This document shows positions 44,429-60,281 of a stretch of DNA of 64,000 nucleotides, piece by piece. Source of the DNA: an uncultured Gammaproteobacteria bacterium (GTDB lineage: Bacteria; Patescibacteriota; Microgenomatia; UBA10105; UBA927). The translations under genes and the position numbers were made by a program. The notes beneath the pieces are model-generated. The model was not told the origin of the DNA, ran no database searches, and saw only the letters and a list, made by a program, of their open reading frames with translations. Within the stretch, counting starts at the first letter, position 1; each line of letters opens with the position of its first letter. The stretch lies in NCBI GenBank assembly GCA_964609895.1, contig CAZSTG010000005.1:6998-70997 (forward strand). The letters run 5' to 3'.

Positions 44429-44429
44429 A

Positions 44430-45875: not shown

Positions 45876-46611
45876 ACCGTTTCGGTAGTTTTTTCCATGG
45901 TTTTGCGGTAAAAAGCCGCTGTAGCCCTTCCAGATCTCCCTGAGCTGTTTTGATAACACGAACCGTTGAGCCCGGATTATCTATCCACGTCACCGGTTCC
46001 TCATAGATACGATATCCCAATTTTTCCGCAAGAATGAGCAGTTCCGAATCAAAAAACCATGCGTTGTCAACGACGTGCGGAAGCAGCATTTTTGCGGCTT
46101 CATCAGTAATGGCTTTAAATCCGCATTGCGCATCACCAAATTTCACGAAAAACACCATTTTTATCAATAAAATATACATTTTTGACGTAAACGTGCGCAG
46201 CATGCTTCTCCCGTACACGCGGGACGCAAACGAATTCCTTGTACCGATGGCAATGTCATATCCCCGCATGAGAGACCGCACGAGCGGAGGCAAATGCTTT
46301 AAATCAGTCGACAAATCGACATCCATGTAACAATGAAGATCCGCATTTGTTTCCAGCCATGCCTTTTTTACCGCTCTTCCTCTTCCTTTTTCCTCAAGTC
46401 TGAGTACACGGACAGCTGCATATTTTTTTGCAAGCTTTTTGGATATTGCAGGAGTAGTATCGGTTGATGCGTTATCTGCAATGGTAATGGACCAACTCAC
46501 ATCAGAAAGATACGACGTCAGAAACGTGATAAGTGTTTCCGTATGCGCTTCTAGTTCGGCTTCCTCGTTATAGACAGGAATAACAATATCAAGTGTTGGC
46601 TTTTTTTCCAT
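45862..46611 (-). CDS. Glycosyltransferase family 2, Dpm1/GtrB-like polyprenyl-phosphate sugar synthase (putative).
   Basis: LDIVIPVYNEEAELEAH...ITIADNASTDTT...DVDLSTD. About 250 aa, soluble. Directly follows a PTPS-related GT-C gene. Confidence 0.7.
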   Translation of the reverse strand: MEKKPTLDIVIPVYNEEAELEAHTETLITFLTSYLSDVSWSITIADNASTDTTPAISKKLAKKYAAVRVLRLEEKGRGRAVKKAWLETNADLHCYMDVDLSTDLKHLPPLVRSLMRGYDIAIGTRNSFASRVYGRSMLRTFTSKMYILLIKMVFFVKFGDAQCGFKAITDEAAKMLLPHVVDNAWFFDSELLILAEKLGYRIYEEPVTWIDNPGSTVRVIKTAQGDLEGLQRLFTAKPWKKLPKRYGRN

Positions 46612-48265
46612 AAATATATATCGCACCGATGGCAAGCAGTCCCACTATGCTCATCCAGTTTCCGAGCATCCGAACCGGCGTGTCACGAAAGCGCAATTCT
46701 ATTATACTCATTCCCTCCTGTATATTCACGGAAGTAAGACCGTATGTAATCTTGGGATATACTTGTTTCCCGTTGACCGTCATCTGCCAACCTGGAAACC
46801 ACGCCTTACGTATCGTAATCTTCTGTGCTGTATCGCTTTTGATTTCCGCAAGAAAAAAAGTACTTGATTCGATAAGCTTCGTCACGGAAAACGTACTTTC
46901 CCCAACAACGGTGACTTTAGCCACTTCGCCTACCGCGGTAGGTCGTACGATGTCGGATGGAAGATACTCATCGGAAATTTTTGACTTGTAAAACCGTAAT
47001 TCCTCAAAACTTTCAAACGCGCTGCTGTCACGCACGTATTGCGTCTGCGGAACAAACAGCTTGACGTTTACCAGCATGGTAGAAACGATGATACCACTCG
47101 CCAACAGTATTCTGACGAAAGGTATACGGAAAACGGAAACAACATATGCTGCGCCTACAGCAATCCCCATCATACCGAATGCCAATAACCTCCACGGATA
47201 CTGGATAAATGCTGTATACGGGATCATGCGCCAAAGAGGTGCCGACTGTGCAAGCATACCGGCTGAACACAACAACACAAACACGGTCGCCACCTTCATA
47301 TATGCATTTTTTTCCTGCACCTTTCTGTTCTTTCTCATATACAGCAGCAGAGAGACGGCGGCCGCAAAAAACACAACATGCAGTCTCCCAAATTTGAATG
47401 ACATACCGTCCACACAGCCTGAAGCTGAACCGGCAAATCCCCATGGCGAATTCCACAACTGCGAAATACAGACGAAATGGTCAAAAAATGTTGTACCTGC
47501 AGACTGTACCATTGCGGTTACCGACGTCGCATACATCTCAAGGAGCGCGGGAAGCCAAAAAAATCCGGAAAGCAAAAGTCCCAGAATAGCAACACCGACG
47601 GGAACCATAATATCCTTTTTTGTCAGTCTATGCCTTACCAGCTTCACTGCCCAGAATATACATATTCCCAAAAGCAGCATCGCACACGTCAAAAAACCAA
47701 AAATGGTGTGCGCGGTAATGACACCCGCAAGGGCAAGTCCCGCGCATGCCGTTTGTGCCACAAAATGTTTTTCCTTCAGTGCACGAATCAATCCCGACAG
47801 GACAAGCGGAACCAGAGCAATCGCCCAGTATTCCCCTACTGATCCGCGAACGTATATCTGTACGGCATGATAGGGAGCAAAAAGAAACACGATGGCACCT
47901 GCAAGCGCAGCTATTGTACCGAATGCAGGCAACAACAATGCATATAATGTTATAGGCGCAAGCACCGCACCGATGCCAAACATGATTTTTGTTGCAATAA
48001 CACTGTCTAGTCCGACTGCATACAGAAATCCGCCGACATAATACGGCAACGGTCCATAAAAATTAAACACCGGATATCCCAAACCGAATCCGAGATCAGA
48101 AACCATACGGACGGGAAATTGCCCGTCCCGAAGTGCACGTCCCATAACAACAACCCTGGCAACCTGTGTGTCATCATGCATGGGAAAATATCCGGCAGAA
48201 AACAACGGCTTGATGGAAAAAAATGACAATAGGATAATGCACAGCAACCCAAAATACTTTTTCAT
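46589..48265 (-). CDS. 'PTPS-related'-type polytopic membrane protein. Paralog 3 of 4.
   Basis: YFPMHDDTQVARVVVMGRALRDGQFPVRMVSDLGFGLGYPVFNFYGP. C-terminal AWFPGWQMTVNG...QEGMSIIELRF plus a terminal TM. Start corrected to MKKYFGLL (cat 48263-48265). Confidence 0.6.
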   Translation of the reverse strand: MKKYFGLLCIILLSFFSIKPLFSAGYFPMHDDTQVARVVVMGRALRDGQFPVRMVSDLGFGLGYPVFNFYGPLPYYVGGFLYAVGLDSVIATKIMFGIGAVLAPITLYALLLPAFGTIAALAGAIVFLFAPYHAVQIYVRGSVGEYWAIALVPLVLSGLIRALKEKHFVAQTACAGLALAGVITAHTIFGFLTCAMLLLGICIFWAVKLVRHRLTKKDIMVPVGVAILGLLLSGFFWLPALLEMYATSVTAMVQSAGTTFFDHFVCISQLWNSPWGFAGSASGCVDGMSFKFGRLHVVFFAAAVSLLLYMRKNRKVQEKNAYMKVATVFVLLCSAGMLAQSAPLWRMIPYTAFIQYPWRLLAFGMMGIAVGAAYVVSVFRIPFVRILLASGIIVSTMLVNVKLFVPQTQYVRDSSAFESFEELRFYKSKISDEYLPSDIVRPTAVGEVAKVTVVGESTFSVTKLIESSTFFLAEIKSDTAQKITIRKAWFPGWQMTVNGKQVYPKITYGLTSVNIQEGMSIIELRFRDTPVRMLGNWMSIVGLLAIGAIYIYGKKANT

Positions 48266-48266
48266 G

Positions 48267-49832
48267 TTATTTTTTTCTAGTTTTTTTGTGCGACGCTGTC
48301 GTTTTGGCAACCGCAAACCAGATACAGGAAACGACATATACTATACCGAATACCGCGCTTGCCACATCGGCAAGAAATCGTCCTGGTGTTTCGCGGAATT
48401 CCATATACAGATGATGCTTCCCTTCAGGAACCGCAATGCGCATAAACCCGTAAGGGTTATCTGACAGTATTTTTACCGGTGCGTCGTCAAGCATCGCTCC
48501 CCATCCCGGATAATACACAGTGTTTATCTGTAATTCACTCTTGGATTCCGCATCAATCACAACATCTATTCGCTGTGTGGTAATTATTTTTTCTTCTATC
48601 TTTCCGTTGCCCGTAAAGAATTCTACCTTTTTTGTAACGCGCGTCGACATTTGTTTTGCCGCCCAGCGCGGCATATACTCGTCATGCACGGTCGTAGTCG
48701 ATTCGTTCGTCGTAAAATATCCTTCAGGATGTATGACACTTTCCGCCTGTATGTATTGAGTACCCCACACTGCCACCAAAAACATAATCAGACAAACGGC
48801 ATATAAAATCGCCCCTTTTTTTGCCTTATGCAGCGCGGCTCCGATCATCCACGGGCCGACAATAACCATATAGGATAGCCACCGGAATGGAAATTGGATA
48901 ACCTTGACAAAATCCGCTATGCGCCAGAAAAAGGCGCTCGCCCGTGAAGCAAAATAAACACTGACTGCAAAAAACGCAAGAAAAAATACCGTTTCCCTTT
49001 TCTGCTGCATCGGCCGCTTGAATGCCATATATAATGCGGCGATAAAAAACGGAAAGCTTGCGAGCATCAGAGAATTGCTTATGGAAAAATAGGCGCCGGG
49101 ATTGGAAATAACCGTTGTGTCAAAATTGACAAACCGCCGTTCAAACAACGCAGGAAGCCAAAAAAATGAAGACATACCGATGCCAACAATGAACTGCGGC
49201 ATAAGACTCCACTGTTTTTTCAGCATGATGTACAACAGGATCAGAGGAATAAAAAATGCCGCAAGGGTGTTATGACTTATGGCCGTTACCGCAATCACTG
49301 GTGCAAGCAGCCATGTCTTTTTTGACTCCACGATATACATCGCACACGGCAAAAGCCCCAGCACAAGAACCTCCCCCACTGATCCCCTTTTGAACATATC
49401 AAACAGCAGATAGGGCATCAACAGATATGACAACGCGCCTGTTATGCTCGCAATTCCTGAAAATGAACGGCGTAGCCACAAAAACATTCCTATCACCCCG
49501 ATTGCCACTGATCCGACAAGGATTACCTCTACGGATGTCTGAAACGGTACTCCGGCTGCGTGCAGGATGCTTCCGATATACATAAAACCGGGATATAAAA
49601 AGTTCGCGACAGGATACCCATAACTCTGGTTCAACCTGCCTAAAAATCTGACTGGAAACTGACCTTCACGAAAACTTTGGTAAAATGCGGACAAACGGAT
49701 TACCATCCAATTCCCGTCGTCCGTCACCAGCATACCTTCACGAAAAACGGGAAATAACACGACAAAAGCTGCAACGAGCAAGGCACAAATACTGAGCAGC
49801 ACATATATTTTTTTATTCATACGAAGGAACAC
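48267..49832 (-). CDS. 'PTPS-related'-type polytopic membrane protein. Paralog 4 of 4 (divergent motif).
   Basis: MLVTDDGNWMVIRLSAFYQSFREGQFPVRFLGRLNQSYGYPVANFLYP, with TDDG in place of HDG/HDD. C-terminal VYYPGWGAMLDD...PEGKHHLYMEF plus a terminal TM. Confidence 0.6.
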   Translation of the reverse strand: MFLRMNKKIYVLLSICALLVAAFVVLFPVFREGMLVTDDGNWMVIRLSAFYQSFREGQFPVRFLGRLNQSYGYPVANFLYPGFMYIGSILHAAGVPFQTSVEVILVGSVAIGVIGMFLWLRRSFSGIASITGALSYLLMPYLLFDMFKRGSVGEVLVLGLLPCAMYIVESKKTWLLAPVIAVTAISHNTLAAFFIPLILLYIMLKKQWSLMPQFIVGIGMSSFFWLPALFERRFVNFDTTVISNPGAYFSISNSLMLASFPFFIAALYMAFKRPMQQKRETVFFLAFFAVSVYFASRASAFFWRIADFVKVIQFPFRWLSYMVIVGPWMIGAALHKAKKGAILYAVCLIMFLVAVWGTQYIQAESVIHPEGYFTTNESTTTVHDEYMPRWAAKQMSTRVTKKVEFFTGNGKIEEKIITTQRIDVVIDAESKSELQINTVYYPGWGAMLDDAPVKILSDNPYGFMRIAVPEGKHHLYMEFRETPGRFLADVASAVFGIVYVVSCIWFAVAKTTASHKKTRKK

Positions 49833-49833
49833 A

Positions 49834-51357
49834 TTACAGCTTCTTCGGAAGCTCTATTTTGTATAAAAAAGTATATACGTTTTTGCTATTCCCTTTTTGA
49901 TATTTCGAAACCAATGTCATCGGCCATCTGTACGCATTTGCATCCTGTTTTTGATACACAACATAATAGGTATCTTTTTCTTCGGCGGATCGCAGAATCT
50001 CGGATGGTATTATTTCCGGAGGCGGCCATATACCGTGTATTTCAATATTGGCATTCTTCCAAAGGTATATTTCGAGTGCAAACGGATATAAACCGAATGT
50101 TCCCTCCGTATACACCGCTATGGGTTTTCTTTGTGCCTGCGTTTCCAGTATGGCCACAATTTCGTTGGTTCCCCATCCCGACGGCCAGTCATCAATGTAT
50201 TGACCGATGTCGGATTTGGGAATCGGGGCGTGTTGAATATCCGTCACAATCTGTACGGACAATTTGATTGCGGAAAAACATACAAGTCCGACCAGTACCA
50301 TACTCAATAATTTCGGACGGATCTTCTGCAACAGAACATCAAACGTGTACGCGGCAAGGACAAGCAGCGGCATGGACATAAACAGCACATACCGCGGATA
50401 CAGGACTTTCCCGAACAGGGCAAGAGCAAAAAACGGGGCAAACCACCATCCTACCAGCACCAGTTTTTCCATGGGTTTTTTCCAGAACACCACCAGTGAT
50501 GCAAGCGCCGCAATAAAAACGGGCGGAGTCAGATATCTAATCATCCAGTCAAATTCCCCATGCAGATTTCCTCTCCAGAACCGGAACGGGTGTGTCATCC
50601 ATTCGCTGAAAGTATAGATAAATGTCGTATCTTTCTGCGCAATAATGTAAAAATACGGAGACAACCGCAAAATGCTGTAGATTGCCTGAGACAACACGAC
50701 GACAATGAGTGCCAGCCCTCCCCATGTAGCCAATCTTTTCATGACACGCTTCTCTTTATAGTTAAAAAGGAGCAGTGACAGAGGCAACAGATAGAGACTG
50801 AAGTTCGCCGATGTCTTATTGAGCATACCGACACCGATCGACAACCCTAAAATAAGTGCGACATCAAGCCGCAATCGGCGGGCAAGTAATACACTAATAT
50901 AGGAGTTCCAGATAAAAAACGCTGCAACCCACGCGTCATACAGTGCCATACGGTCATACATAACGGTAAACGGACAAATAAGATACAAAAAAGCCGCAAT
51001 GACGCCGATACGCTTGTTTTTAAATAACTCGAAACCCAGCGCATACATACCCCACATTCCTATAAAACCCGCAACAACTGACACCATCCTCCCTGCTTGA
51101 AGCGGATCCGCAATCAGCCGCATAGCAGCCATAACAAACCATGTGAATAAAGGCTGTTTACCATCCGTCAGGGAAATAAACCTCCAAGATGCGTCATTTC
51201 CCCCTATCTGACTCCAGCGAAGATAGATCGCTTCATCTGTGAATATGGGCAATGCGGTAAGATTGGTCAGCCTCGAAATGACGTAAAGAATGGATATGCC
51301 GATCAGCCACGTTATTGGGCTTTTGAGAAGCCGTTTGAGTAATCCCATACTCTCCAT
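49834..51357 (-). CDS. GT-C glycosyltransferase, PMT_2/ArnT (GT39/83)-like.
   Basis: PIFTDEAIYLRWSQIGGNDASWRFISLTDGKQPLFTWFVMA carries the DE...PL loop. Polytopic. Start corrected to MESMGLLKRL (cat 51355-51357). The track's 53-aa N-terminal extension overlaps the upstream gene. Confidence 0.65.
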   Translation of the reverse strand: MESMGLLKRLLKSPITWLIGISILYVISRLTNLTALPIFTDEAIYLRWSQIGGNDASWRFISLTDGKQPLFTWFVMAAMRLIADPLQAGRMVSVVAGFIGMWGMYALGFELFKNKRIGVIAAFLYLICPFTVMYDRMALYDAWVAAFFIWNSYISVLLARRLRLDVALILGLSIGVGMLNKTSANFSLYLLPLSLLLFNYKEKRVMKRLATWGGLALIVVVLSQAIYSILRLSPYFYIIAQKDTTFIYTFSEWMTHPFRFWRGNLHGEFDWMIRYLTPPVFIAALASLVVFWKKPMEKLVLVGWWFAPFFALALFGKVLYPRYVLFMSMPLLVLAAYTFDVLLQKIRPKLLSMVLVGLVCFSAIKLSVQIVTDIQHAPIPKSDIGQYIDDWPSGWGTNEIVAILETQAQRKPIAVYTEGTFGLYPFALEIYLWKNANIEIHGIWPPPEIIPSEILRSAEEKDTYYVVYQKQDANAYRWPMTLVSKYQKGNSKNVYTFLYKIELPKKL

Positions 51358-51374
51358 TATAACGGAATAAACAG

Positions 51375-52562
51375 CTATCTTACAAATACCTCCCCTTGCT
51401 GCTTTTTCGCATGCATCCGCTTCTTTCTTCCTTCTCCTATGATTGCAATTAGGACACTCAACACAATCGGTACCCATGTCACCCAGAGTTTTATCAGCGG
51501 CACCGGTGCATTCCAATTGCCAAAATACAAAAACGGAGCATACTGAAGCAAAAATCCGAGAGATACACCTGCACTGACAATCAACACTGCAGTCAAATCA
51601 GGCACCAGCGCGACAAACGGAACAATCCACACCCAATACCATGATAGTGCTTCACGCTGCGTTAATACGGCCAAAAAACCGATGACCATACAACTGAGGG
51701 TTATGCGACGCTTCCAACCAGTAAAAAATGCCGGAATCAAAAAAATCGTCATCAACTTCATGGCGACGGATCCGGACAGAAGCAGCCATGACAACCATTT
51801 TCTGTTTTTCCTATAGAGAATAATGGCCCATATGGCCAGAGCCATCATAACGATATCATTGTGCGGACTCACCAGACATTCAATAATTATTAAGGGGTTA
51901 AACGCAAATACCGCAATGCCGAACACAGCTCTCTCGGCATCTTCATGCTCCAGAATTTTTCCAATTCCCATTGCCACAGCAATATACGCCAACGCTATGA
52001 GCAGTTTTAGATTCCAGATAAGTGGAAGAAAATATCCGAATCCGAAAAAAAACGGCACCAGGGTCACCATAATCCATAACGGTGTGTATGCACTTGCAAG
52101 ATGTGTCCAATGCATGAAGGAAAGCCATGAATCAAATCCCGCAAACTGAAGCGGAGTCACAAGATATGGATTTTTATGATAGATAAGCACGGTTTTGGCG
52201 GTAAACAGGTAATTAAAAAAATCATACGAAAATGCGGGATACGAAAACACCGTTGCCAAAACAAGCACGGCAATAATAGTCCATACTTCTCTGCCATGCA
52301 GTTTTTGGTTTTTCACCATCTTCAATACGAAGGCATACAATACAAACAACGAAAGTATGAGTCCGACGAACATGCCTGTTGACAGTGGACGATCAAAATA
52401 TCCGATATGTTGAAACCACGTCTGAATGGAACGCCATATACTGACATTCGTAAGCGTCAACGCCAGATCCACCTGTGTATATGAATACGCAAAAAGCAGT
52501 ACGCCAACAAGCGCATATGCGGCAACAAAAATCCAGCCAAGGGGCGAAATGTGTTTTTTCAT
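51375..52562 (-). CDS. Polytopic membrane protein, unknown GT-C-like family. Paralog of 18142..19263.
   Basis: Shares SYDFFNYLFTAKTVLIYHKNPYLVTPL and AFNPLIIIECLVSPHNDIVMM blocks with 18142..19263. Start corrected to MKKHISPL (cat 52560-52562). Confidence 0.5.
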   Translation of the reverse strand: MKKHISPLGWIFVAAYALVGVLLFAYSYTQVDLALTLTNVSIWRSIQTWFQHIGYFDRPLSTGMFVGLILSLFVLYAFVLKMVKNQKLHGREVWTIIAVLVLATVFSYPAFSYDFFNYLFTAKTVLIYHKNPYLVTPLQFAGFDSWLSFMHWTHLASAYTPLWIMVTLVPFFFGFGYFLPLIWNLKLLIALAYIAVAMGIGKILEHEDAERAVFGIAVFAFNPLIIIECLVSPHNDIVMMALAIWAIILYRKNRKWLSWLLLSGSVAMKLMTIFLIPAFFTGWKRRITLSCMVIGFLAVLTQREALSWYWVWIVPFVALVPDLTAVLIVSAGVSLGFLLQYAPFLYFGNWNAPVPLIKLWVTWVPIVLSVLIAIIGEGRKKRMHAKKQQGEVFVR

Positions 52563-52569
52563 GAATATG

Positions 52570-53328
52570 TTACTGTTTCCGGTAAATGCCTTTCCATGCA
52601 TTGATCCGGATATGCAGTATATCAAGAAGTCCTTCCCATGAATCCTTCAGAGGATTGACCCGCCGTGTTTCCACATAGTGCCACTCAACGGGAATTTCCC
52701 TGATTTTATATCCGAGTGTTTTTGCTAGAAACAACACTTCTATATCAAATCCGGCCGTCACCATGGCGCCCGTTACTGTTTTTTGTTTCCCGTACAAGGA
52801 TAAATGACGGAAAATATCCTGTGCGACTTCACGTTTAAATGCCTTAAAACCGCACTGTGTGTCGGAAATCCCCTTCAGTCCAAGAATCACCGTCCGAAGC
52901 AGCATAAATCCGCGTGCCATTATCCGACGCAACAATGGTGCTCCCTCTCTTTTGCTTTTCCGTGATCCGATGACTACATCAAATCCTTTTTCAAACCATG
53001 GAAGCAGTTTTTCAACCTCAGGAAGCGGCGTTGCCTGATCCAAATCACTGAAAAGCACCATCTTTCCCTTTGCTGCAAAAATGCCTGTCATCACTGTTGC
53101 AGCCTTGCCTTGATGCGGATTCCGGATAATCCTGACGCGGGAATGCTTACCGATACACTCCTCCGTAAGGTTTACCGTGTTATCCGACGAACCGTCATCC
53201 ACCACAATAAGTTCCCATGCGTATGTTCTTGCCTCAAGATACCGAAGCACTTTGTCAAAAGCGCCGAGGCGAATATTTGTTTCTTCGTTATATGCGGGGA
53301 TGACAACCGATAAAAAAGGTATTTCCAT
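52570..53328 (-). CDS. Glycosyltransferase family 2, Dpm1/GtrB-like polyprenyl-phosphate sugar synthase.
   Basis: LSVVIPAYNEETNI...LIVVDDGSSDNT...FSDLDQATP...VVIGSR. About 250 aa with no TM, a classic DPM1-type architecture. Confidence 0.8.
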   Translation of the reverse strand: MEIPFLSVVIPAYNEETNIRLGAFDKVLRYLEARTYAWELIVVDDGSSDNTVNLTEECIGKHSRVRIIRNPHQGKAATVMTGIFAAKGKMVLFSDLDQATPLPEVEKLLPWFEKGFDVVIGSRKSKREGAPLLRRIMARGFMLLRTVILGLKGISDTQCGFKAFKREVAQDIFRHLSLYGKQKTVTGAMVTAGFDIEVLFLAKTLGYKIREIPVEWHYVETRRVNPLKDSWEGLLDILHIRINAWKGIYRKQ

Positions 53329-53331
53329 ATA

Positions 53332-54873
53332 CTACTCTCTATAATGAACGAGTTTATATATTTTAACAACTGACACATCCCATACGCCAGCAATCTCCGC
53401 TCTCCCAAAGCCTGCGACTTCCCAAAGTGAATTCCCGAGGGGCTGACAGAAAATATCTTCGCACACAATCAAAAGCTGCTCCGTCACTGTATTCCGCTGG
53501 GGATCGTTTTCTGCATTTTCAATTACAACGGGCTTGTGATTCCATATCTCAAAAAAATACCGATATGCATGATCGGAATTGCCGGTTGTGATGAGCGCAA
53601 AATTAAATGGCTTGCCGTCTGTATGGCTGACGATTTCTTTTGCAATGTTTTCCACCTGTGACAACTGGTTATTTGGCGCAAACACAAACGGTCGCCCCTG
53701 CCAGTTGAAAGCAAGAAGTGCGGCAATACACAGGCCTCCTGCAATTTTCCCGATTCCTCGGATATGGAACACATCAACCAAAAAAAGCGCCGTCAGAAAA
53801 AACGGCAGCGGATACATGATGCCGAAGTAATAATCATATATGTTTTTCTTATATACCCCAAAGAAAAATAGCGGAACGATAAGCCATGCAAGCATCATGA
53901 AAAATGTATGCATATCTTTTTCGCTCTTGTTTTTTCTCGATCTGATATAGTGAGTCAGAAGCGCACATAACCCGCCGAGTGCAAGCAACACTTCTCCTAA
54001 AATCCACATGTTTTTCATGGGTTGTTTAATTCCTCCCAATGTTCCCGCTTCAGGAATGCGGAGAAGAAATCTCCCAAACAGACGCAAGAACACATCCTGC
54101 ATGTTTCCCATAAAATGTGACAGGACAAACCCCGTGTCCTTACCGGCGAAAATAAACTCAAGAATGGCGCGCGTGTTTAAAAATCCGTGACGTACCTCAA
54201 ACGCCAAAAAAGGCGAAAATCCGACGACGACACCGAGCATGCCCAAAAGAATATCGCGAATCTTCACACGTTGTATGGAAAAAAGAACAATAACCACCTC
54301 GGCAACGATAAGAAACAGATACGTGTAATGCAGCTGTATCCCGATGCCTGCACACAGACCGACCCAAAACAGCAATGAGAAGTTTCGCTTCTCCCGTGCT
54401 AACCAGAGAAGATACAAAGAAAGCAAGGCAAAAAACGGTACGATGTTCGGATTCCACGAGGATCTAGAAAAGGAAATGACAATAGGCGACACTGCATACA
54501 GCGCGGCAGCTAGAAGTCCAACAGGTTTGGAAAACCATTTGGTTCCAACAAGATATGTCAAACAGACTGTCGCAATCCCAAACAAGGCAACCATGACTGC
54601 AGGACCCACGGGATTTAGTTTCCATGCCCACAGAAACGGTGCCATGAAATAATAATACACAGGTCCCATAAAAAATCCGCCGACAGATGCGGTCGGACCA
54701 AGCAGGGTAAATTTTCCGTCAACGATCATCCGTTTGACCACCAGTACGTCACGACCTTCATCGCCGAGAAACGTCATGTATTCATTGATTTTATACAGCC
54801 GAAGATACGCAGCTACAGCAAGAATAACAAGAAGCGGAATCCACTGAATAGCACGCCTGACAACATGTTTCAT
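53332..54873 (-). CDS. GT-C membrane glycosyltransferase, ArnT-like. Paralog of 28005..29477.
   Basis: LRLYKINEYMTFLGDEGRDVLVVKRMIVDGKFTLLGPTASVGGFFMGPVYYYF. 513 aa, polytopic. Confidence 0.55.
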   Translation of the reverse strand: MKHVVRRAIQWIPLLVILAVAAYLRLYKINEYMTFLGDEGRDVLVVKRMIVDGKFTLLGPTASVGGFFMGPVYYYFMAPFLWAWKLNPVGPAVMVALFGIATVCLTYLVGTKWFSKPVGLLAAALYAVSPIVISFSRSSWNPNIVPFFALLSLYLLWLAREKRNFSLLFWVGLCAGIGIQLHYTYLFLIVAEVVIVLFSIQRVKIRDILLGMLGVVVGFSPFLAFEVRHGFLNTRAILEFIFAGKDTGFVLSHFMGNMQDVFLRLFGRFLLRIPEAGTLGGIKQPMKNMWILGEVLLALGGLCALLTHYIRSRKNKSEKDMHTFFMMLAWLIVPLFFFGVYKKNIYDYYFGIMYPLPFFLTALFLVDVFHIRGIGKIAGGLCIAALLAFNWQGRPFVFAPNNQLSQVENIAKEIVSHTDGKPFNFALITTGNSDHAYRYFFEIWNHKPVVIENAENDPQRNTVTEQLLIVCEDIFCQPLGNSLWEVAGFGRAEIAGVWDVSVVKIYKLVHYRE

Positions 54874-54879
54874 AAATAA

Positions 54880-56004
54880 TTACGTCCGTTTTTTCCAGAT
54901 AACGCGGGAATACATACCGTAATTCCACAGCATCAATAGCGATGTACCGATTAAAAAGTATAGGAAATATAATGATTCTCCGAACAGACGTGTTCCCAAT
55001 TCTATTGTTCCCGTCTGAATGAAAATTACCCCGAACAGTGATGTTCCGTAAAACTGCACCAACTTCAACACATACGATTGAACCGATGTGATTTTCTGTT
55101 CCTTGAACGTCCACACGTTGTTAAGGTTAAAATTAGAAAATATTGCGGCCGCCGCGCCAATAAGGTTGGCAATTGATGCTGTCAGTCCGACCCATTCACG
55201 AAATATGACAAGAAGAACGGCATTCAGAATAAATCCGATGCCTCCGACAACCAGAAATTTTCCAAATGCTCCGTATCGGATGTCATGAACAAGTGACGAT
55301 GCCACATACAATAATACGTTTTTTATATATTCCCCCGGTGCAATTTTGGAATGTCCGTATTTCCTGTCTGTAAAATGAATCGGCACTTCTACAATCTTGG
55401 CGCCGTGGGCAATTGCCTTATGCAAAAATGCTATCTGGAATACATACCCGCTGTATGCTTTCATTTCACCGGCAAATTGCTCATAATATTTTTTCCTGTA
55501 TGCACGAAATCCGCCTGTCCAATCGTGTGTTTTGGGAAACCGTAACCCGAATCTGACAATCGCATTGCCGACAATGCTGAAAATTTTCCGGTGCAGTCCC
55601 CAGTTTTCCGGTATTGATCCGTTTTTGATATACCGGCTTCCCACAACAAAATCCGCCCCGTCATCGATGGCCTGCATAAACAAGGGGATTCGCGTAGGAT
55701 CATGGGATAAATCACAATCCATTTGTATAATAATCTCTGCCTGCAGATGCTCCACTGCATACGCCATTCCGCGAAGTAGTGCCCTTCCTAATCCTTCCTT
55801 TTTTCCTGTGATGATATGCGTATCTTTATGTGTTTTCATGTACGCATGCACAACGTCTCCGGTACCATCAGGAGACAAGTCGTCCACGACCAGAAACGCC
55901 ATCACATGATTCTTTATCCTGCCGGCCTGCTCATGAAGTGCGTCAAGCAGCGTGATAATATTTTCACGTTCATTGTACGTTGGGAGGATAATGACCGTCT
56001 TCAT
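54880..56004 (-). CDS. GT2 Dpm1/GtrB-like synthase fused to a C-terminal GtrA-like 4-TM domain.
   Basis: MKTVIILPTYNERENI...LVVDDLSPDGT...QMDCDLSHDP...VVGSRY, then GKFLVVGGIGFILNAVLLVIFREWVGLT...FSNFNLNNVWTFK, which is a GtrA-family signature. Start corrected to M44 (cat 56002-56004). Confidence 0.75.
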   Translation of the reverse strand: MKTVIILPTYNERENIITLLDALHEQAGRIKNHVMAFLVVDDLSPDGTGDVVHAYMKTHKDTHIITGKKEGLGRALLRGMAYAVEHLQAEIIIQMDCDLSHDPTRIPLFMQAIDDGADFVVGSRYIKNGSIPENWGLHRKIFSIVGNAIVRFGLRFPKTHDWTGGFRAYRKKYYEQFAGEMKAYSGYVFQIAFLHKAIAHGAKIVEVPIHFTDRKYGHSKIAPGEYIKNVLLYVASSLVHDIRYGAFGKFLVVGGIGFILNAVLLVIFREWVGLTASIANLIGAAAAIFSNFNLNNVWTFKEQKITSVQSYVLKLVQFYGTSLFGVIFIQTGTIELGTRLFGESLYFLYFLIGTSLLMLWNYGMYSRVIWKKRT

Positions 56005-56029
56005 ACAGTTTTCCGGTCCGTTTGACAGG

Positions 56030-56989
56030 TTAGACCCGTTCTCGCCAATAGTTGAGAAGGTCTTCCATTGTTTTTTCAAATGGGATTTCCGGCTTCCATC
56101 CTGTTTTTGCCACAAATTTACTATTGTCGCCAATAAGAACCGGAACTTCAGACGGACGCATACGTGCTGGATCCTGTCTGATCTCCACTTTCACTTTACT
56201 CATGCCGATAAGCATATTGAGCATGTCTTTGATCACGACTGCGTTCCCTGTACAGATATTATATACGTCTCCCGCATCGCATTTTTCAACTGCAAGCAGG
56301 TATCCTCGCACCATATCACGGACATCCGTCCAGTCCCGTTGCGCTTCAAGATTACCGACATGGATCACCGGTTCCAGTTTGCCTTTTTCTATCATCGCAA
56401 TCTGTTTTGCAAAATTGGATGTTACAAATGTCTCACCGCGTCTCGGACCGGTGTGATTGAATCCTCTTGTTCGGATAATGTTCATGCCATAGGAGCAAAA
56501 ATATTGATATCCGAGATAGTCCATGGCAACTTTTGAAACGCCGTATGGGCTCTGTGGCCGAAGCGGATTTGTCTCCTTAATCGGCACTTCATCCGGATGA
56601 ACCAACCCATATTCTTCACTTGAACATGCAATCTGGATGGCAGGATTGATTTTCGCCTGACGAACCGCTTCAAAAAGGTTTGCTGATCCGATAATGTTGA
56701 CTTCCAGTGTTACAGACGGTGATACCCATGATGTTGGAACGAAGGACTGGGCTGCAAGATGAAAAATATAATCAGGACGAATCCTTGAAATGGTTCCGTA
56801 TAAACTATGGGAATCTAAAATATCAGCATCTTCCAAATGGAGTTGTGGTTTAATGCCTTCAATAAGATCCATGCGGGATCGAGGCCTGCTTAATCCATAG
56901 ACTTCAAAACCTTTGGAAAGCAAAAGTTCCGCCATGTGGCTTCCTACGAAACCACCGATTCCTGTTATAAGTGCTTTTTTAGCTGCCAT
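56030..56989 (-). CDS. GDP-4-keto-6-deoxy-D-mannose reductase (Rmd)-like short-chain dehydrogenase.
   Basis: KKALITGIGGFVGSHMAELL...PYGVSKVAMD (YxxxK)...DPARMRPSEV...KTGWKPEI parallels Rmd (DPARMRRAE...TGWKPEI). 319 aa. AGGAGG lies 10 nt upstream. Confidence 0.6.
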   Translation of the reverse strand: MAAKKALITGIGGFVGSHMAELLLSKGFEVYGLSRPRSRMDLIEGIKPQLHLEDADILDSHSLYGTISRIRPDYIFHLAAQSFVPTSWVSPSVTLEVNIIGSANLFEAVRQAKINPAIQIACSSEEYGLVHPDEVPIKETNPLRPQSPYGVSKVAMDYLGYQYFCSYGMNIIRTRGFNHTGPRRGETFVTSNFAKQIAMIEKGKLEPVIHVGNLEAQRDWTDVRDMVRGYLLAVEKCDAGDVYNICTGNAVVIKDMLNMLIGMSKVKVEIRQDPARMRPSEVPVLIGDNSKFVAKTGWKPEIPFEKTMEDLLNYWRERV

Positions 56990-57055
56990 ACAGATGTTCC
57001 TCCTTACCTTTCTAGAATGTAGGTATATTATACCGTAAACTTTTATAAAACGATA
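56990..57055 (-). promoter_or_regulatory. Putative internal sigma70-type promoter plus RBS for the rmd-like gene.
   Basis: On the minus strand: ...TTTACGGTATAATATACC...AAGGAGGAACATCTGATG. TATAAT is the rc of 57027-57032 and AGGAGG is the rc of about 57008-57013. This is one of the very few gaps over 60 nt in the window. Confidence 0.4.
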
Positions 57056-58354
57056 TTACATTCTGCCAACGCCGAAATATCTATACCCCAGATCTTTCAT
57101 TGTCTGCGGATCATACATGTTTCTTCCGTCAAACAACACTCTGTCTTTTAAACCTTTTGCAAGTCGAACCATATCAAGCTGTTTAAATTCATTCCATTCA
57201 GTTACGACAACAACTGCATCAGCACCATTTGCCGCTTCATATGCCGACGTTGCGTACGTTACACCATCAGGCAACACCTTCTTTGCATTCTCCATAGCAA
57301 CTGGATCATAGGCTTTGACTATGGCACCGTCTTTTATAAGCGCTGAAATAATAGTAATGGATGGAGCAAACCGCATATCATCCGTATCCGGTTTGAACGA
57401 TAGCCCCAACACACCAATTGTTTTTCCTTTCACATGGTCATTAAAGTGCTTCTTGATCTTGTCAATAAAATGCACCCGAGCTTCATCATTAATCTCATCT
57501 GTTGCCTTCAGCAATGTAAAGTCGTACTCATAGTTTCTTGCAATGGCTATGAGTGCTTTGACATCTTTTGGAAAACAGCTCCCCCCGTAACCAACACCGG
57601 GATATAAAAAGTTTCGTCCGATTCGGCTGTCAAGTCCAACGCCTTCGAGCACCTTTTCAACATCCGCCCCGACTTTTTCCGATAAAAATGCCATTGCGTT
57701 TGCAAATGAAATTTTCACAGATAACATGGAGTTGGCTGCATATTTGATAAGCTCTGCTGTTTCCACATTACATAACACAAGTTTGGTATCAATGGGTTTG
57801 TGGAGATCAATCATCATTTTCTGCGCTCTGTCGGATGTTGTTCCAATAACTACCCGTTGCGGATGTTGGGTATCACCAACCGCCTGTCCTTGACGCAAAA
57901 ATTCCGGACAGGAGCAAATGGCAAAGGAAGAACCTGCGGGTTTGACCTCGTCAAGTATCTCGCCAACCTTTTTGTTTGTTCCAGGCGGCACCGTGCTCTT
58001 CACAGACACAACCTTATATCCTGTCAGGTTCTTACCAATTTCCCGAGCCGCATTAAATACTTCAGTAAGATCGGCATCTCCTGTTGGTTTTGGCGGTGTA
58101 CCAACTGCTATGAAAATAATTTCTGACGGCACAACAGCTTCTTTATATTCAAGGGTAAAAATAAGCCGTCCCGCATTAACGTTTCTCTTTACAATCTCTG
58201 AAAGTCCCGGTTCATAGAATGTTGCTATACCCTGTTTCAGTTTTTCAATTTTTTCCTTATTCCGTCCGACAACCCATACTGTATTACCGAGATCGGCAAA
58301 TATTGCCGCCGTCACCAACCCGACATATCCGTGACCGATAAACGCAACTGTCAT
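57056..58354 (-). CDS. ugd: UDP-glucose 6-dehydrogenase.
   Basis: MTVAFIGHGYVGLVTAAIFADLGNTV...IFIAVGTP... and ...GGSCFPKDV (catalytic Cys). 432 aa. AGGAGG upstream. Confidence 0.85.
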   Translation of the reverse strand: MTVAFIGHGYVGLVTAAIFADLGNTVWVVGRNKEKIEKLKQGIATFYEPGLSEIVKRNVNAGRLIFTLEYKEAVVPSEIIFIAVGTPPKPTGDADLTEVFNAAREIGKNLTGYKVVSVKSTVPPGTNKKVGEILDEVKPAGSSFAICSCPEFLRQGQAVGDTQHPQRVVIGTTSDRAQKMMIDLHKPIDTKLVLCNVETAELIKYAANSMLSVKISFANAMAFLSEKVGADVEKVLEGVGLDSRIGRNFLYPGVGYGGSCFPKDVKALIAIARNYEYDFTLLKATDEINDEARVHFIDKIKKHFNDHVKGKTIGVLGLSFKPDTDDMRFAPSITIISALIKDGAIVKAYDPVAMENAKKVLPDGVTYATSAYEAANGADAVVVVTEWNEFKQLDMVRLAKGLKDRVLFDGRNMYDPQTMKDLGYRYFGVGRM

Positions 58355-58375
58355 AATACATTCCTCCTAAAAAAT

Positions 58376-59260
58376 TTATACTGCTTCCTGCTTTTTTACT
58401 TCCTCAAGTCCCTCTTGTACCGTATGAAGATGTACGCCTAATGCGTCAATCCTGTCATGCCGGAGCGCCGCTTTTTTCGGAATTGCCGCCCTTCCTTTAA
58501 AAAACTCCGCATATGTCGTTTTTCCGACCAGCTGCACATCAAGACCGAACGTACGTGCGATAAGCACCATCATGTCATAAGGAGCAATCGGCTGTTCACT
58601 CGGTACATGAAAAATACCGCTCCCATTCTCTCGGACAATTGCGTCGACTGCAACTGCCAAATCGTCGATAAATGTGCATGTGAAAATCTGATCGGTCGGA
58701 GCGGCGACAGAAAGATTATCAGCCAGCCTGTTTCTTATCCGATGGACAAAATCCAACTTTGTTTTTTCGTTCATCCCTTTCGGATAGGCACGATACGGAT
58801 TTCCGATGCGGACGATCACACCCATCGCGCCCAGCTCCTTTACAGCCTCTTCTCCGTGAAATTTTGTCTCCGTATAAAAACTTAAAGGATTCGGTGTATC
58901 GTTTTCATTATATGCATCCTTCGTTCCGTCAAACACATAATCGGTTGATATATACAGCAGATGTTTTCCGAATTTCCTACACAGCGAAACGATTGATTTT
59001 GTTGCATCAACATTCACTTTCCATGCAACACTGTGTTCCCGCAAGTCTTTTTCTTTTTCAGCACCCTGTACATCTGTATATGCTGCAAAATGAAATACCC
59101 ATGGCGCATCAGATGCTGCAAACCGTTTCTCAAGTGCCGCGGCGTCCGTAATGTCAATGCCTGTCTCAAGACTCAAATTCTCAAAAGCATATGCCGACGA
59201 TAAAAGATCGACAACTCTTGATCCGACCATGCCGGTCAGTCCGGTTCCTAGAATATTCAT
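58376..59260 (-). CDS. rmlD: dTDP-4-dehydrorhamnose reductase.
   Basis: MNILGTGLTGMVGSRV...YISTDYVFDG...PLSFYTETK. 294 aa. 4-nt overlap with rmlB. Confidence 0.8.
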   Translation of the reverse strand: MNILGTGLTGMVGSRVVDLLSSAYAFENLSLETGIDITDAAALEKRFAASDAPWVFHFAAYTDVQGAEKEKDLREHSVAWKVNVDATKSIVSLCRKFGKHLLYISTDYVFDGTKDAYNENDTPNPLSFYTETKFHGEEAVKELGAMGVIVRIGNPYRAYPKGMNEKTKLDFVHRIRNRLADNLSVAAPTDQIFTCTFIDDLAVAVDAIVRENGSGIFHVPSEQPIAPYDMMVLIARTFGLDVQLVGKTTYAEFFKGRAAIPKKAALRHDRIDALGVHLHTVQEGLEEVKKQEAV

Positions 59261-60276
59261 TGCCGCTGCTCCCCATATTGTTTCTCATAATATGACTGGT
59301 ATGCACCGGTTTTTATATTTTTCCACCATTCTGTATGTTCCTGATACCAGACGACGGTTTTTTCCAGCCATGCATCAAATCCGTATTGCGGTTTCCATCC
59401 CAGTTCTTTGTTTATTTTTGTCCAGTCAATCGCATATCGTCTGTCGTGTCCGAGTCTGTCTTTGACAAACTCAATCAGCGATTCGTCGCGACCCATAATT
59501 TTCAATATCTTTTTTACTACATCAAGATTAGAAATATCTTCCGTCACGCCGCCGACACAATACGTTTCTCCGATCTTCCCACGGTTCAATACCGCATCAA
59601 TTGCCCGACAGTGATCCTCAACATACAGCCAGTCCCTGACGTTTAATCCGTCACCGTACACAGGAATAGTTTTTCCTTCCAGAATATTGGTAATTGTCAG
59701 TGGAATGAATTTCTCAGGAAATTGCAGCGGTCCATAGTTATTGGAACAATTGGTGATCGTGACGGGCAATCCGTATGTGTCATGATATGCCCGAACAATA
59801 TGGTCGGAACCTGCTTTGCTTGCCGAGTAGGGGCTATGCGGATCGTATTTCGTCAATTCATCAAATTTATTGGAACTACCCAAATCCAACGATCCGAAGA
59901 CCTCATCCGTTGAGACATGATGAAAACGTTTCACAGACAACTGTACCGCTGCTTCCAACAACACCTGTGTTCCCAGCACGTTTGTTTTCACAAAAGGGGA
60001 TGCATCAAGAATGGAGCGATCCACATGACTTTCCGCAGCAAAATGCACCACTGTATCACATCCTGTCATCGCAGCTGTTACTTCAGGAGCAATACAGATG
60101 TCGCCTTTGATAAACTGATACCGGTTGCTTTGTTCTATGCTTTTCAGGTTTTCCAGATTCCCCGCATAGGTGAGTGCATCAAAATTCACCACTGTATCAT
60201 CAGGATGCTCGCGCAACCAATAAAGGATGAAGTTTGATCCAATAAATCCTGCACCGCCTGTAACAAATAGCTTCAT
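59257..60276 (-). CDS. rmlB: dTDP-glucose 4,6-dehydratase.
   Basis: MKLFVTGGAGFIGSNF...HFAAESHVDRS...PYSASKAGSDHIVRAYHDTYGLPVTITNCSNNYGP. Start corrected to M17 (cat 60274-60276). Confidence 0.9.
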   Translation of the reverse strand: MKLFVTGGAGFIGSNFILYWLREHPDDTVVNFDALTYAGNLENLKSIEQSNRYQFIKGDICIAPEVTAAMTGCDTVVHFAAESHVDRSILDASPFVKTNVLGTQVLLEAAVQLSVKRFHHVSTDEVFGSLDLGSSNKFDELTKYDPHSPYSASKAGSDHIVRAYHDTYGLPVTITNCSNNYGPLQFPEKFIPLTITNILEGKTIPVYGDGLNVRDWLYVEDHCRAIDAVLNRGKIGETYCVGGVTEDISNLDVVKKILKIMGRDESLIEFVKDRLGHDRRYAIDWTKINKELGWKPQYGFDAWLEKTVVWYQEHTEWWKNIKTGAYQSYYEKQYGEQRQ

Positions 60277-60281
60277 ATGTT

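Follow-up and report, generated by a model that had tools for sequence, protein, structure and literature searches.

A conserved Microgenomates operon of polyprenyl-phosphate-sugar synthase-like proteins and GT-C glycosyltransferases

Organization of the locus

The region described here lies in a 64 kb window (the whole stretch of DNA that was analysed) from an uncultured ultra-small CPR bacterium of the Microgenomates/Gottesmanbacteria type, and represents the central part of a conserved Microgenomates (Gottesmanbacteria-type) operon (Table 1; genes are referred to by their first coordinate). All six ORFs named in an earlier note on this DNA are present on the - strand at the coordinates given there, those of the two modules being spaced 1–17 nt apart, and the quoted motifs are real; chance is not a concern because the features rest on homology. 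The note had described two modules in series, but the real unit contains three GT2 synthases of the Dpm1/GtrB/ArnC class (54880, 52570, and 45862) interleaved with five GT-C enzymes in a row: PMT_2, MptA_B, PMT_2, and two YfhO/PTPS-related-like proteins. Every synthase and GT-C of the operon falls into an already catalogued family.

The unit has rmlACBD, ugd, the gene of an Rmd/Gmd-like reductase, and a Wzx flippase gene on its flanks. The best PDB match of the reductase, 2pk3, is a GDP-6-deoxy-D-lyxo-4-hexulose reductase, and the ArnA model matches it at only 1.5e-8. The Wzx protein matches the NCBIfam O-glycosylation flippase and MOP flippase models below their cutoffs.

Table 1. Genes and features of the operon and related loci in the window.
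Coordinates	Strand	Feature	Length	Basis
18142..19263	-	Paralogue of MptA_B-like GT-C	373 aa	30% identity to 51375 (over 382 columns), E 6e-41
19260..20405	-	PMT_2-like GT-C paired with 18142 paralogue		PF13231 28.6 bits
44430..45875	-	Wzx/MOP-family flippase	~481 aa	PF13440 3e-52
45862..46611	-	Third Dpm1-like soluble GT2 (GT2c)	249 aa	PF00535
46589..48265	-	PTPS_related/YfhO-like GT-C	558 aa (gene call on identical contig)	PF10131 31.5 bits (cutoff 26.4)
48267..49832	-	GT-C glycosyltransferase without Pfam match	~517-521 aa	Fold
49834..51357	-	Second PMT_2/ArnT-like GT-C, conserved partner of MptA_B gene	507 aa	PF13231 53 bits
51375..52562	-	MptA_B_family/GT87-like GT-C glycosyltransferase	395 aa	~9 hydrophobic segments
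52570..53328	-	Soluble or peripheral Dpm1/ArnC/GtrB-class GT2 (GT2b)	252 aa	PF00535 2e-28
53332..54873	-	PMT_2/ArnT-like GT-C, partner of fused synthase	513 aa	PF13231 46 bits (cutoff 26.1); PF02366
54880..56004	-	GT2 polyprenyl-phosphate sugar synthase with C-terminal 4-TM GtrA/DPMS-type domain	374 aa	PF00535 4e-26; PF04138 3e-14
56030..61489	-	Nucleotide-sugar supply: rmlA, rmlC, rmlB, rmlD, ugd, SDR		Pfam, NCBIfam
56030..56989	-	Rmd/Gmd-like SDR	319 aa	Best PDB match 2pk3, 5e-90
57056..58354	-	ugd		Pfam, NCBIfam

The GT2-GtrA fusion and the soluble synthases

Pfam and PDB matches bear out the proposed composition of module 1, a polyprenyl-phosphate-sugar-synthase-type GT2 carrying a GtrA-like 4-TM domain, with an ArnT/PMT_2-like GT-C encoded by the next gene. 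In the 54880 protein, which contains FSNFNLNNVWTFK, the GT2 domain spans residues 5-176 and the GtrA_DPMS_TM domain residues 249-370. Both domains are kept in 120/120 of the best homologues and the fusion is found at every syntenic locus; it is therefore genuine and no assembly artefact. It is not a new packing, as this is the known architecture of the solved Pyrococcus furiosus type-III DPMS, a relationship also reflected in the name of the Pfam domain, GtrA/DPMS.

The 54880 protein matches this enzyme (PfDPMS, PDB 5MLZ; Gandini et al. 2017 PMC5526996; 2026 PMC12992685) with an E-value of 1e-35 as a single sequence and 5e-51 over its full length as a profile. In each, one polypeptide of ~374 aa combines a GT-A catalytic domain and interface helices with a C-terminal 4-TM GtrA-like domain, and SRY, R131, S135, N248, and N277 are conserved between them. 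The invariant residues N261, N291, and N361 of the 54880 TM domain correspond in the alignment to PfDPMS N248, N277, and R341; the position matching 341 is thus Asn, as it is in the non-Thermococcales members (PMC12992685). Among the differences, V stands in place of K178 and M/L in place of F338, and the donor-binding motif reads D(A/C)DLSHDP instead of DADxQHPP. With this motif and without a conserved K178, the sugar need not be mannose. Strict type-III DPMSs have been restricted to hyperthermophilic archaea (PMC12992685), whereas the 54880 protein comes from a bacterium (CPR) and is presumably mesophilic, and its expected lipid is polyprenyl phosphate rather than dolichyl phosphate.

GT2b was correctly described as Dpm1-like, its best PDB matches being PfDPMS (2.5e-17), ArnC (5e-16), and GtrB sll0501 (1e-14); no hydrophobic segment was found in it (maximum KD19 1.46). 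GT2c, which the earlier note overlooked, has PfDPMS as its best PDB match (1.9e-14), followed by ArnC and GtrB, and likewise has no hydrophobic segment. Beyond the domain fused in 54880, the 64 kb window has no GtrA-like domain.

The MptA_B/GT87-like protein and the other GT-C enzymes

The 51375 protein, which carries SYDFFNY...HKNPY and FAFNPLIIIECLVSPHNDIVMM, had been taken as a member of an unknown family and a candidate novel translocase or transferase. However, PF26314 (MptA_B_family) is the precomputed assignment of an identical protein (P0001) and of its relatives, PF09594 (GT87) is found in 29 of 30 relatives (best E 4e-9), and relatives have already been named "glycosyltransferase family 87" by NCBI; the family includes ~7,400 cluster representatives. 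No PDB relatives were found by sequence profile. Foldseek analysis of an AF2 model (pLDDT 86.6, pTM 0.88) places PimE as the top PDB match with a probability of 0.96, albeit with a weak E-value of 0.15 and TM 0.33-0.41, and further GT-Cs also stand out by probability. By family and fold, the 51375 protein is a GT-C glycosyltransferase of the MptA_B_family/GT87 and not a likely flippase. Module 2 is therefore not the complete three-component module that had been claimed, consisting instead of a GT2 and two GT-Cs without a flippase candidate.

D114, E228, and H234-N235-D236 are invariant in an alignment of the 51375 protein with its relatives (A1). D114 sits in the loop that follows TM3 and has Y/H at +4; the counterpart positions are D58/Y62 in PimE and the motif reported between TMH3 and TMH4 in MptA (PMC12041525, PMC3229680), marking D114 as a candidate catalytic residue.

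The reported paralogy of the 18142 protein to 51375 is upheld (Table 1), and the paralogue has all of the invariant residues of alignment A1. Its gene overlaps that of the PMT_2-like protein 19260 by 4 nt, and protein P0189 is a natural fusion of the same two types, MptA_B and PMT_2, linking these GT-C types. A third GT87-type protein in the window, absent from the earlier note, is encoded at 26678..27964.

Two further GT-C genes, 48267 and 46589, which lie directly downstream of 49834, had also been overlooked. The 48267 protein has a membrane domain, a C-terminal beta-sandwich, and a terminal TM helix, and is paralogous to the 46589, 16548, and 21738 proteins. All of the top 28 Foldseek PDB matches of its AF2 model (pLDDT 89.3) are GT-Cs, STT3, PglB, AftD, and ArnT among them, with E-values down to 2e-5, and the protein thus has a GT-C fold. 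The YfhO-like proteins here form a divergent clade of ~520-560 aa, mostly without Pfam matches.

Gene order among relatives

In 73/73 testable loci (genome_contigs) the GT2b gene is the direct upstream neighbour of the MptA_B gene, and in relatives the two genes overlap by about 25-35 nt. In 72 of the 73, a 49834-type PMT_2 gene is located no more than two genes downstream of the MptA_B gene. The presence of module 1 beside module 2 is variable; nine of the 73 loci are without module 1, and in nine distant loci the triad GT2(250 aa)-MptA_B-PMT_2 stands alone at the operon start. This triad is the conserved core. Of 63 testable loci, 54 have a 53332-type PMT_2 gene next to the GT2-GtrA gene, and the order ugd-SDR-GT2/GtrA is conserved across loci. 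All of the syntenic loci belong to one lineage, and part of the conservation could thus be inheritance rather than selection. Gene order and co-occurrence, together with the family and fold assignments and the conservation of the fusion, are the direct results of this analysis.

Relationships to known systems

The function proposed below is closer to mycobacterial lipomannan assembly (LM/LAM) than to phage Gtr. In the Ppm1-PimE-MptB-MptA-MptC system (PMC3229680, PMC12041525) a Dpm1-like synthase supplies several outside-acting GT-Cs with one polyprenyl-P-sugar, and the same is proposed here. The 51375 protein shares its family with the mycobacterial/corynebacterial LM/LAM set and has PimE as its best structural match; like PimE and MptA it has an invariant Asp in the post-TM3 loop with an aromatic residue or His at +4, and like MptA it lacks a large C-terminal extracytoplasmic domain. 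In Micrococcus luteus, MptA/MptB homologues cluster with another GT-C (PMC3229680). However, 51375 is only ~14% identical to PimE, without a sequence-level PDB match, and here the genes form one tight operon, synthase included, in a CPR host without a mycolate envelope; a PIM-anchored lipoglycan cannot be assumed as acceptor.

The GtrA-GtrB-GtrC O-antigen glucosylation of Shigella, Salmonella, and their phages follows the same logic, with a GT2 making polyprenyl-P-hexose, a 4-TM GtrA implicated in flipping, and a GT-C acting outside. It differs in that GtrA here is a fused DPMS-type domain, the two C-terminal TM helices of phage GtrB are absent, the GT-Cs are of the PMT_2, MptA_B, and YfhO-like families and outnumber the synthases, there is no prophage, and O-antigen is not expected.

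The Gram-positive CsbB/GtlA-GtcA-YfhO/GtlB teichoic-acid glycosylation systems and the streptococcal GacI/J/K/L and Pgf systems (PMC5836110, PMC7389260, PMC8035078) also combine a cytoplasmic GT2 with YfhO-type or other GT-Cs glycosylating wall polymers, and the GacI-L systems share the rhamnose-polysaccharide context, but a separate GtcA, GacJ, or GacK equivalent is absent beside modules 2 and 3. The arrangement of ugd, SDR, GT2 synthase, and ArnT-like PMT_2 resembles ugd/arnA/arnC/arnT of the lipid A aminoarabinose pathway, and ArnC is the second-best PDB match for all three GT2s; however, the SDR is Rmd/Gmd-like and not ArnA-like, ArnB/ArnD are not adjacent, ArnE/F are absent, and lipid A is not expected in CPR bacteria.

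Proposed function and alternatives

We propose, with a probability of roughly 0.7, that the operon assembles or decorates a cell-surface glycan outside the membrane with polyprenyl-phosphate monosaccharides as donors; within this mechanism we infer the lipid carrier, sugars, flipping, acceptor, and reaction order. The three GT2s are predicted to act at the cytoplasmic face, loading a sugar from a nucleotide sugar onto polyprenyl phosphate. The fused DPMS-type domain of 54880, with its invariant polar-pocket asparagines, may flip that synthase's own product, a flippase role being hypothetical for DPMS-type TM domains in general, and the 52570 and 45862 synthases would be peripheral proteins without a dedicated flippase nearby. 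The five GT-C-fold transferases would then consume the flipped lipid-linked sugars, several perhaps sharing one donor, as PimE, MptB, MptA, and MptC do with mycobacterial Ppm1, rather than each sugar having its own phage-type Gtr module. As acceptor, a rhamnose-containing wall polysaccharide is most plausible, presumably the product of the flanking rml genes together with Wzx and the cytoplasmic GT2/GT4 genes; surface proteins are the alternative.

The model of the earlier note, in which independent Gtr/CsbB-GtcA-YfhO-type modules each make one lipid-linked sugar and attach it as one side-chain residue to an existing polymer, parallel to O-antigen or teichoic-acid glycosylation, seems to us unlikely. 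All three synthase genes adjoin GT-C genes, YfhO-like GT-Cs are the transferases of Gram-positive three-component systems (PMC5836110, PMC8035078), and the variable presence of module 1 does suggest modularity; but there are five GT-Cs to three synthases, the conserved core has one GT2 with at least two GT-Cs, a single GtrA-like domain is present in 64 kb, prophage context is absent, and the known MptA_B enzymes are polymerising mannosyltransferases (PMC3229680). It is highly improbable that the 51375 and 18142 proteins are not transferases but lipid-linked-sugar translocases and/or membrane anchors and activators of the TM-less GT2b, as Ppm2 is for Ppm1, DPM3 for DPM1, and GacJ for GacI. Such a role would fit the absence of a TM segment in GT2b, the constant adjacency and overlap of the two genes, the absence of GtrA near module 2, and the nine loci where the triad has no nearby flippase gene. 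However, homology and fold indicate GT-C enzymes, the invariant acidic and His/Asn/Asp loop residues are as a catalytic site would show, and the 18142 paralogue does not adjoin a Dpm1-like GT2; transferase and anchoring roles are in any case compatible with each other.

Quite unlikely, too, is protein O-glycosylation, modelled on the actinobacterial Ppm1/Pmt and streptococcal Pgf/GtrB systems, in which PMT_2-type GT-Cs would modify secreted or S-layer/pilin proteins from polyprenyl-P-sugars. The 53332 protein matches both PF13231 and PF02366 (PMT), and there are weak NCBIfam PgfS-like matches of the GT2s in addition to the O-glycosylation flippase match of Wzx, but these NCBIfam matches all score far below curated cutoffs. 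Nearby, no candidate for a Ser/Thr-rich substrate was seen; the CAP-domain protein encoded at 61777..62751 has no Ser/Thr-rich stretch. A polysaccharide is what the rml genes, Wzx, and the many cytoplasmic GTs suggest.

Organization of the operon

The open reading frames named in the earlier note are all present on the minus strand with the peptide motifs quoted for them. Gaps of only 1-17 nt divide the genes of the cluster from one another, which fits a single operon. The order of the synthase core is GT2/GtrA - PMT_2 - GT2b - MptA_B - PMT_2 - YfhO-like - PTPS_related - GT2c - Wzx, with rmlA-rmlC-rmlB-rmlD-ugd-SDR (Rmd/Gmd-like) before it and GT2-GT2-GT2-YfhO... after it (see table). Both PMT_2 proteins of the core exceed the PF13231 gathering score, as expected of PMT_2/ArnT-like GT-C enzymes. 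The TM-less synthases GT2b and GT2c (the third GT2) contain no hydrophobic segments, and the closest solved relatives of both, as well as the best PDB matches of all three GT2s, are PfDPMS, ArnC and GtrB (sll0501). By sequence, the three GT2s are thus presumably GtrB-class enzymes of the polyprenyl-P-hexose synthase type.

The earlier note had described two complete three-component modules in series, the first formed by the fused synthase and its PMT_2 neighbour and the second by GT2b, the MptA_B protein and the next PMT_2 gene. The genes are as described, but the second module is not complete, as only the 54880 protein carries a GtrA-like domain; when all six-frame ORFs of 70 aa or more in the window were searched with an HMM built from the fused TM domain, this protein was the sole match, and the runner-up had an E-value of 0.27. 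The unit comprises three synthases and five GT-Cs.

Features of the operon and the surrounding island
Coordinates	Strand	Length (aa)	Feature	Matches
54880..56004	-	374	GT2-GtrA fusion	Pfam Glycos_transf_2, residues 5-176, E 4e-26; GtrA_DPMS_TM, 249-370, E 3e-14
53332..54873	-	513	PMT_2 GT-C	Pfam PMT_2 PF13231, 46.0 bits (cutoff 26.1); PMT also matches
52570..53328	-	252	GT2b	Pfam Glycos_transf_2, E 2e-28
51375..52562	-	395	MptA_B protein	Pfam scan: sub-threshold GT87 only, 16.5 bits, E 0.0075 (cutoff 25 bits)
49834..51357	-	507	PMT_2 GT-C	PMT_2 PF13231, 53.1 bits (cutoff 26.1)
48267..49832		521	YfhO/PTPS-related-like	no Pfam match
46589			PTPS_related	PF10131, 31.5 bits (cutoff 26.4)
45862..46611			GT2c
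56030..58354			ugd and 319-aa SDR
18142..19263	-		MptA_B-like paralogue	no direct Pfam match
19260..20405			PMT_2 gene
20399..20986		195	N-terminal signal/TM-like segment	weak DUF5667, E 0.0024
26678..27964		428	GT87-type protein	GT87, 26.2 bits (gathering 25 bits)
680, 8273, 19260, 23402, 25023, 28005, 33580+, 49834, 53332			PMT_2-like (nine)
29528+, 36248, 39543			Long YfhO (three)
16548, 21738, 46589, 48267		about 520-580	YfhO/PTPS-related-like (four)
18142, 26678, 51375			GT87/MptA_B-like (three)
14427, 31970			GT-C-like without family assignment (two)
61777..62751			CAP/SCP-domain protein, membrane-anchored
63136..63720			Sua5/YciO/YrdC (TsaC-like)

Where translation of the MptA_B gene starts (within 51375..52625) is ambiguous. 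With an ATG at 52562 (MKKHIS..., as in the closest homologues) the gene begins 7 nt beyond the GT2b stop, and the public gene call of the identical contig uses an ATG at 52601 with a 32-nt overlap; in relatives the called start overlaps the GT2b stop by about 25-35 nt. Scanning for promoters and terminators at the operon boundaries returned promoter-like sites below the shuffle expectation and terminator-like matches inside T-rich membrane-protein genes, and a tRNA scan of the window returned zero tRNAs. Within the operon, conservation is highest (66-95% identity between loci) for the ugd and SDR genes, which directly precede the fused synthase. The best match of the SDR is GDP-6-deoxy-D-lyxo-4-hexulose reductase (2pk3, 5e-90), yet it scores well under the NCBIfam gmd cutoff.

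Conservation of gene order

The same gene order recurs on five contigs located via the protein collection, with identities of 52-100%. A scan of one genome per species gave 80 loci, which we annotated by BLASTP against the proteins of the window; all of the credibly named taxa are Gottesmanbacteria, Woesebacteria, Levybacteria or Microgenomates. A GT2b orthologue lies immediately upstream of the MptA_B gene at 73/73 testable loci, a 49834-type PMT_2 gene follows within two genes at 72/73, and the GT2/GtrA-PMT_2 pair is upstream at 54/63, although part of this synteny may be inherited, as all loci come from one lineage. At the nine loci without module 1, where MptA_B identity is 36-43%, GT2b is the first gene of the operon and is preceded by housekeeping genes, and the conserved core is therefore GT2b, MptA_B and PMT_2, a single synthase with at least two GT-Cs.

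Many of the GTDB-representative records in this set (loci L006-L082) are titled 'uncultured Gammaproteobacteria bacterium'. These titles look like placeholders or mislabels, because both the genes they carry and their nearest named relatives indicate Gottesmanbacteria/Microgenomates.

A fused synthase related to type-III DPMS

The joining of a GT2 and a GtrA-like four-TM tail in one gene, proposed from the sequence alone, is borne out. The best 120 database homologues (60-88% identity, about 366-393 residues), from Gottesmanbacteria, Microgenomates and Patescibacteria and named 'dolichol-phosphate mannosyltransferase' by JGI, all retain both Pfam domains (120/120), which rules out a spurious fusion from assembly. 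However, the packing itself is not new, as it is a known architecture with a solved archaeal counterpart. The 54880 protein matches the Pyrococcus furiosus dolichyl-phosphate mannose synthase 5MLZ (PfDPMS, also 374 residues) with an E-value of 1e-35 as a single sequence, and a 22-sequence profile of its family aligns over the whole length and all four TM helices (5mlz chain residues 23-373) at 5e-51.

We used the definition of type-III DPMS of Gandini et al. 2026 (PMC12992685), in which the enzymes transfer mannose from GDP-mannose to dolichyl or polyprenyl phosphate and strict members are confined to hyperthermophilic archaea. The GT-A catalytic domain and the C-terminal 4-TMH GtrA-like domain are both present (PF00535 and PF04138), but the motifs agree only in part. 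The PfDPMS motif 89-DADxQHPP-96, which binds metal and the donor diphosphate (PMC12992685), is replaced by D96-C-D-L-S-H-D-P103 in the window protein and by DADLSHDP in the family consensus, with S100 and D102 invariant in the 22 sequences; because the donor motif is altered the sugar need not be mannose. Among the residues that bind the Dol-P phosphate in PfDPMS, SRY(116-118), R131, S135 and K178 (PMC12992685), the first five correspond to the invariant S123-R124-Y125, R139 and S143, but K178 aligns with V188 within an invariant YVFQ, so that the set is incomplete. In the TM domain of PfDPMS, N248 and N277 form a polar pocket with F338 as a gate, and position 341 is Asn outside of Thermococcales (PMC12992685). 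Both pocket residues align with invariant asparagines (N261 and N291) and R341 with the invariant N361, that reported variant, but the gate aligns with M358 (consensus L) and is not conserved. Flipping of the DPMS product by the TM domain has been proposed as a hypothesis only (PMC12992685), with which the conserved Asn triad is compatible. Judged by these alignments, the fused protein is a bacterial variant of type III rather than a strict member.

The MptA_B-like proteins

The 51375 protein had been singled out as an unknown family and a candidate novel translocase or transferase. This is the part of the earlier reading that fails: the observations stand and the interpretation does so in part, but the protein belongs to a catalogued GT-C family, PF26314/GT87, with Pfam and NCBI names. 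A homologue search returned 640 proteins, and precomputed PF26314 (MptA_B_family in contig annotations) is assigned to database protein P0001, identical to the window protein, and to all listed relatives, many of which also carry PF09594. Relatives are named 'glycosyltransferase family 87 protein' or 'DUF2029 domain-containing protein' by NCBI and 'Gpi18-like mannosyltransferase' by JGI, and the GT87 HMM matches 29/30 aligned family members scanned singly (best E 4e-9). The family is large: an exhaustive profile search gave 7,404 representatives of clusters at E<=1e-3, of which 3,065 reach E<=1e-10. No non-glycosylation family was matched and nothing pointed toward a transporter family; matches to lmo0954 (E 0.0034 over 45 residues) and to AZOBR_p60025 (E 8e-5, far below its own cutoff, and itself a 'cell surface glycopolymer formation' family) were judged too weak.

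A confident AlphaFold2 model built on the family alignment (pLDDT 86.6, pTM 0.88) has a GT-C(A) fold. Its top Foldseek match in the PDB is the mycobacterial GT87 mannosyltransferase PimE (9dm7_A, probability 0.96), and beyond it the probability is raised for other GT-C enzymes alone (Gpi14, ALG6, ALG9, STT3, ArnT); the E-values of these matches are weak, at 0.15 and above. Searching PDB sequences with the alignment profile gave zero matches even at an E-value of 10. Invariant residues in the alignment, which includes the 18142 paralogue, are R58, D114 (in SYDFFNY), N117, K186, E228, H234-N235-D236, K269 and W308-Y309. D114 starts a short helix (113-126) in a low-charge loop after TM3 with Y/H118 at +4, where local pLDDT is about 59. 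In PimE the catalytic base, D58, is found at the JM1 tip and forms a hydrogen bond with Y62 (PMC12041525); MptA, which has no large C-terminal loop, is reported to carry a conserved acidic motif ('DXD') between TMH3 and TMH4 (PMC3229680). In the model D114 is a candidate counterpart of these acidic residues.

The 18142 protein is a true paralogue of 51375, as had been claimed (30% identity over 382 columns, E 6e-41), and is placed in the family by this homology. Its gene overlaps the PMT_2 gene 19260..20405 by 4 nt, and in a natural fusion protein of 747 aa from the representative search (P0189) an MptA_B-like domain of 18142 type (38% identity) is joined to a PMT_2 domain of 19260 type (32% identity), in an order opposite to that of the two genes. 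The overlap and the fusion support a functional MptA_B-PMT_2 pairing. A 195-aa gene lies between a GT2 gene and this pair in the second cluster.

BLASTP detects no significant similarity between the third GT87-type protein, 26678, and 51375 or 18142, and a search of PDB sequences with 26678 gave zero matches; on that lack of similarity to the pair, the island holds a second GT87 lineage in 26678, which is not a close paralogue of the other two.

An unannotated GT-C family

The family in this operon that is actually unannotated is that of the 48267 protein, not that of 51375. Its paralogues in the window are 46589 (E 1e-31), 16548 and 21738, and its homologues (n=1,109 at E <= 1e-5) nearly all lack a Pfam assignment and are named 'hypothetical protein'. 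The top 28 PDB matches of its AlphaFold2 model (pLDDT 89.3) are all GT-C enzymes with a probability of 1.00 and E-values down to 2e-5, and include STT3, PglB, AglB, AftD, ArnT and AftA; the model confidently predicts a GT-C fold, to which a beta-sandwich is added at the C-terminal end, followed by a last TM helix. D39 is invariant in the family and D38 nearly so, just after TM1. Membership of both operon proteins among YfhO/PTPS_related GT-Cs follows from the HMM score of 46589 and from the paralogy and model of 48267.

Proposed function

As a class of process, we favor the building or decoration of a surface glycan outside the membrane from lipid-P-sugars (probability about 0.7). Up to three polyprenyl-phosphate monosaccharides would be made at the cytoplasmic face, and translocated, the first possibly by the fused DPMS-type domain and the others by some other route; outside, five GT-C enzymes would use the flipped sugars to build or decorate the glycan. 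The acceptor is most plausibly a rhamnose-containing polymer specified by the flanking genes, or alternatively proteins; we infer the donor sugars, lipid carrier, acceptor and reaction order.

The independent single-sugar decoration modules envisaged in the earlier note seem unlikely, since a Gtr system has a small 4-TM GtrA-family flippase and one GT-C per module, acts on O-antigen and is often carried by prophage; here there are five GT-Cs for three synthases, and a survey of the window found no phage genes. The mycobacterial Ppm1/PimE/MptB/MptA/MptC system is nearer than phage Gtr in its GT-C:synthase ratio, MptA_B membership and conserved triad. Protein O-glycosylation, in which proteins would take the place of the polymer, is distinctly unlikely; a Ser/Thr-rich acceptor was sought nearby, including the CAP-domain and 195-aa proteins, and none was found.

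Translocation admits further variants. The whole-window search with the fused-TM-domain HMM gave no dedicated flippase candidate for modules 2 and 3 (the latter that of GT2c). It is a long shot that the fused four-TM domain (invariant N261/N291/N361) is a genuine polyprenyl-P-sugar flippase and that, in addition, GT2b is recruited by a translationally coupled MptA_B-like GT-C that provides its membrane route. If true, the operon would hold two different answers to the long-open question of how polyprenyl- and dolichyl-phosphate monosaccharides are flipped, and would offer a compact bacterial flipping system suited to heterologous expression. That the MptA_B-like protein acts as a flippase or anchor is highly improbable, and such a role would be compatible with that of a transferase.

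Under the favored reading of surface-glycan synthesis, an ultra-small CPR lineage with genomes of about 1 Mb would give a large and strictly conserved operon to extra-membrane glycosylation from lipid-linked monosaccharides. The best-known examples of such chemistry are the mycobacterial lipoglycans, the decoration of teichoic acids and the eukaryotic or archaeal Dol-P-Man pathways. All parts come from catalogued families, and for the fused synthase an archaeal counterpart has been solved. Mildly new are the strictly conserved Microgenomates operon, which combines three synthases with five GT-Cs, the occurrence in bacteria of a type-III-like DPMS whose polar pocket is invariant, and the density of GT-C paralogues, about 20 per 64 kb, in a CPR bacterium with a small genome. 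As a bacterial relative of archaeal type-III DPMS that keeps the asparagines of the proposed flipping pocket invariant, the fused synthase could help to test the proposed synthase-flippase moonlighting. A literature search on Gottesmanbacteria glycosyltransferases found nothing relevant.

The surrounding island

Nearly the whole 64 kb (680..61489) is one glycan-biosynthesis island on the minus strand with about 20 GT-C-like polytopic proteins, together with many GT2/GT4 genes, two Wzx genes, a DegT gene and an acetyltransferase gene. Complete contigs of relatives are about 1.0-1.2 Mb. The island ends near 61.5 kb and is followed by the CAP/SCP-domain and Sua5/YciO/YrdC genes.
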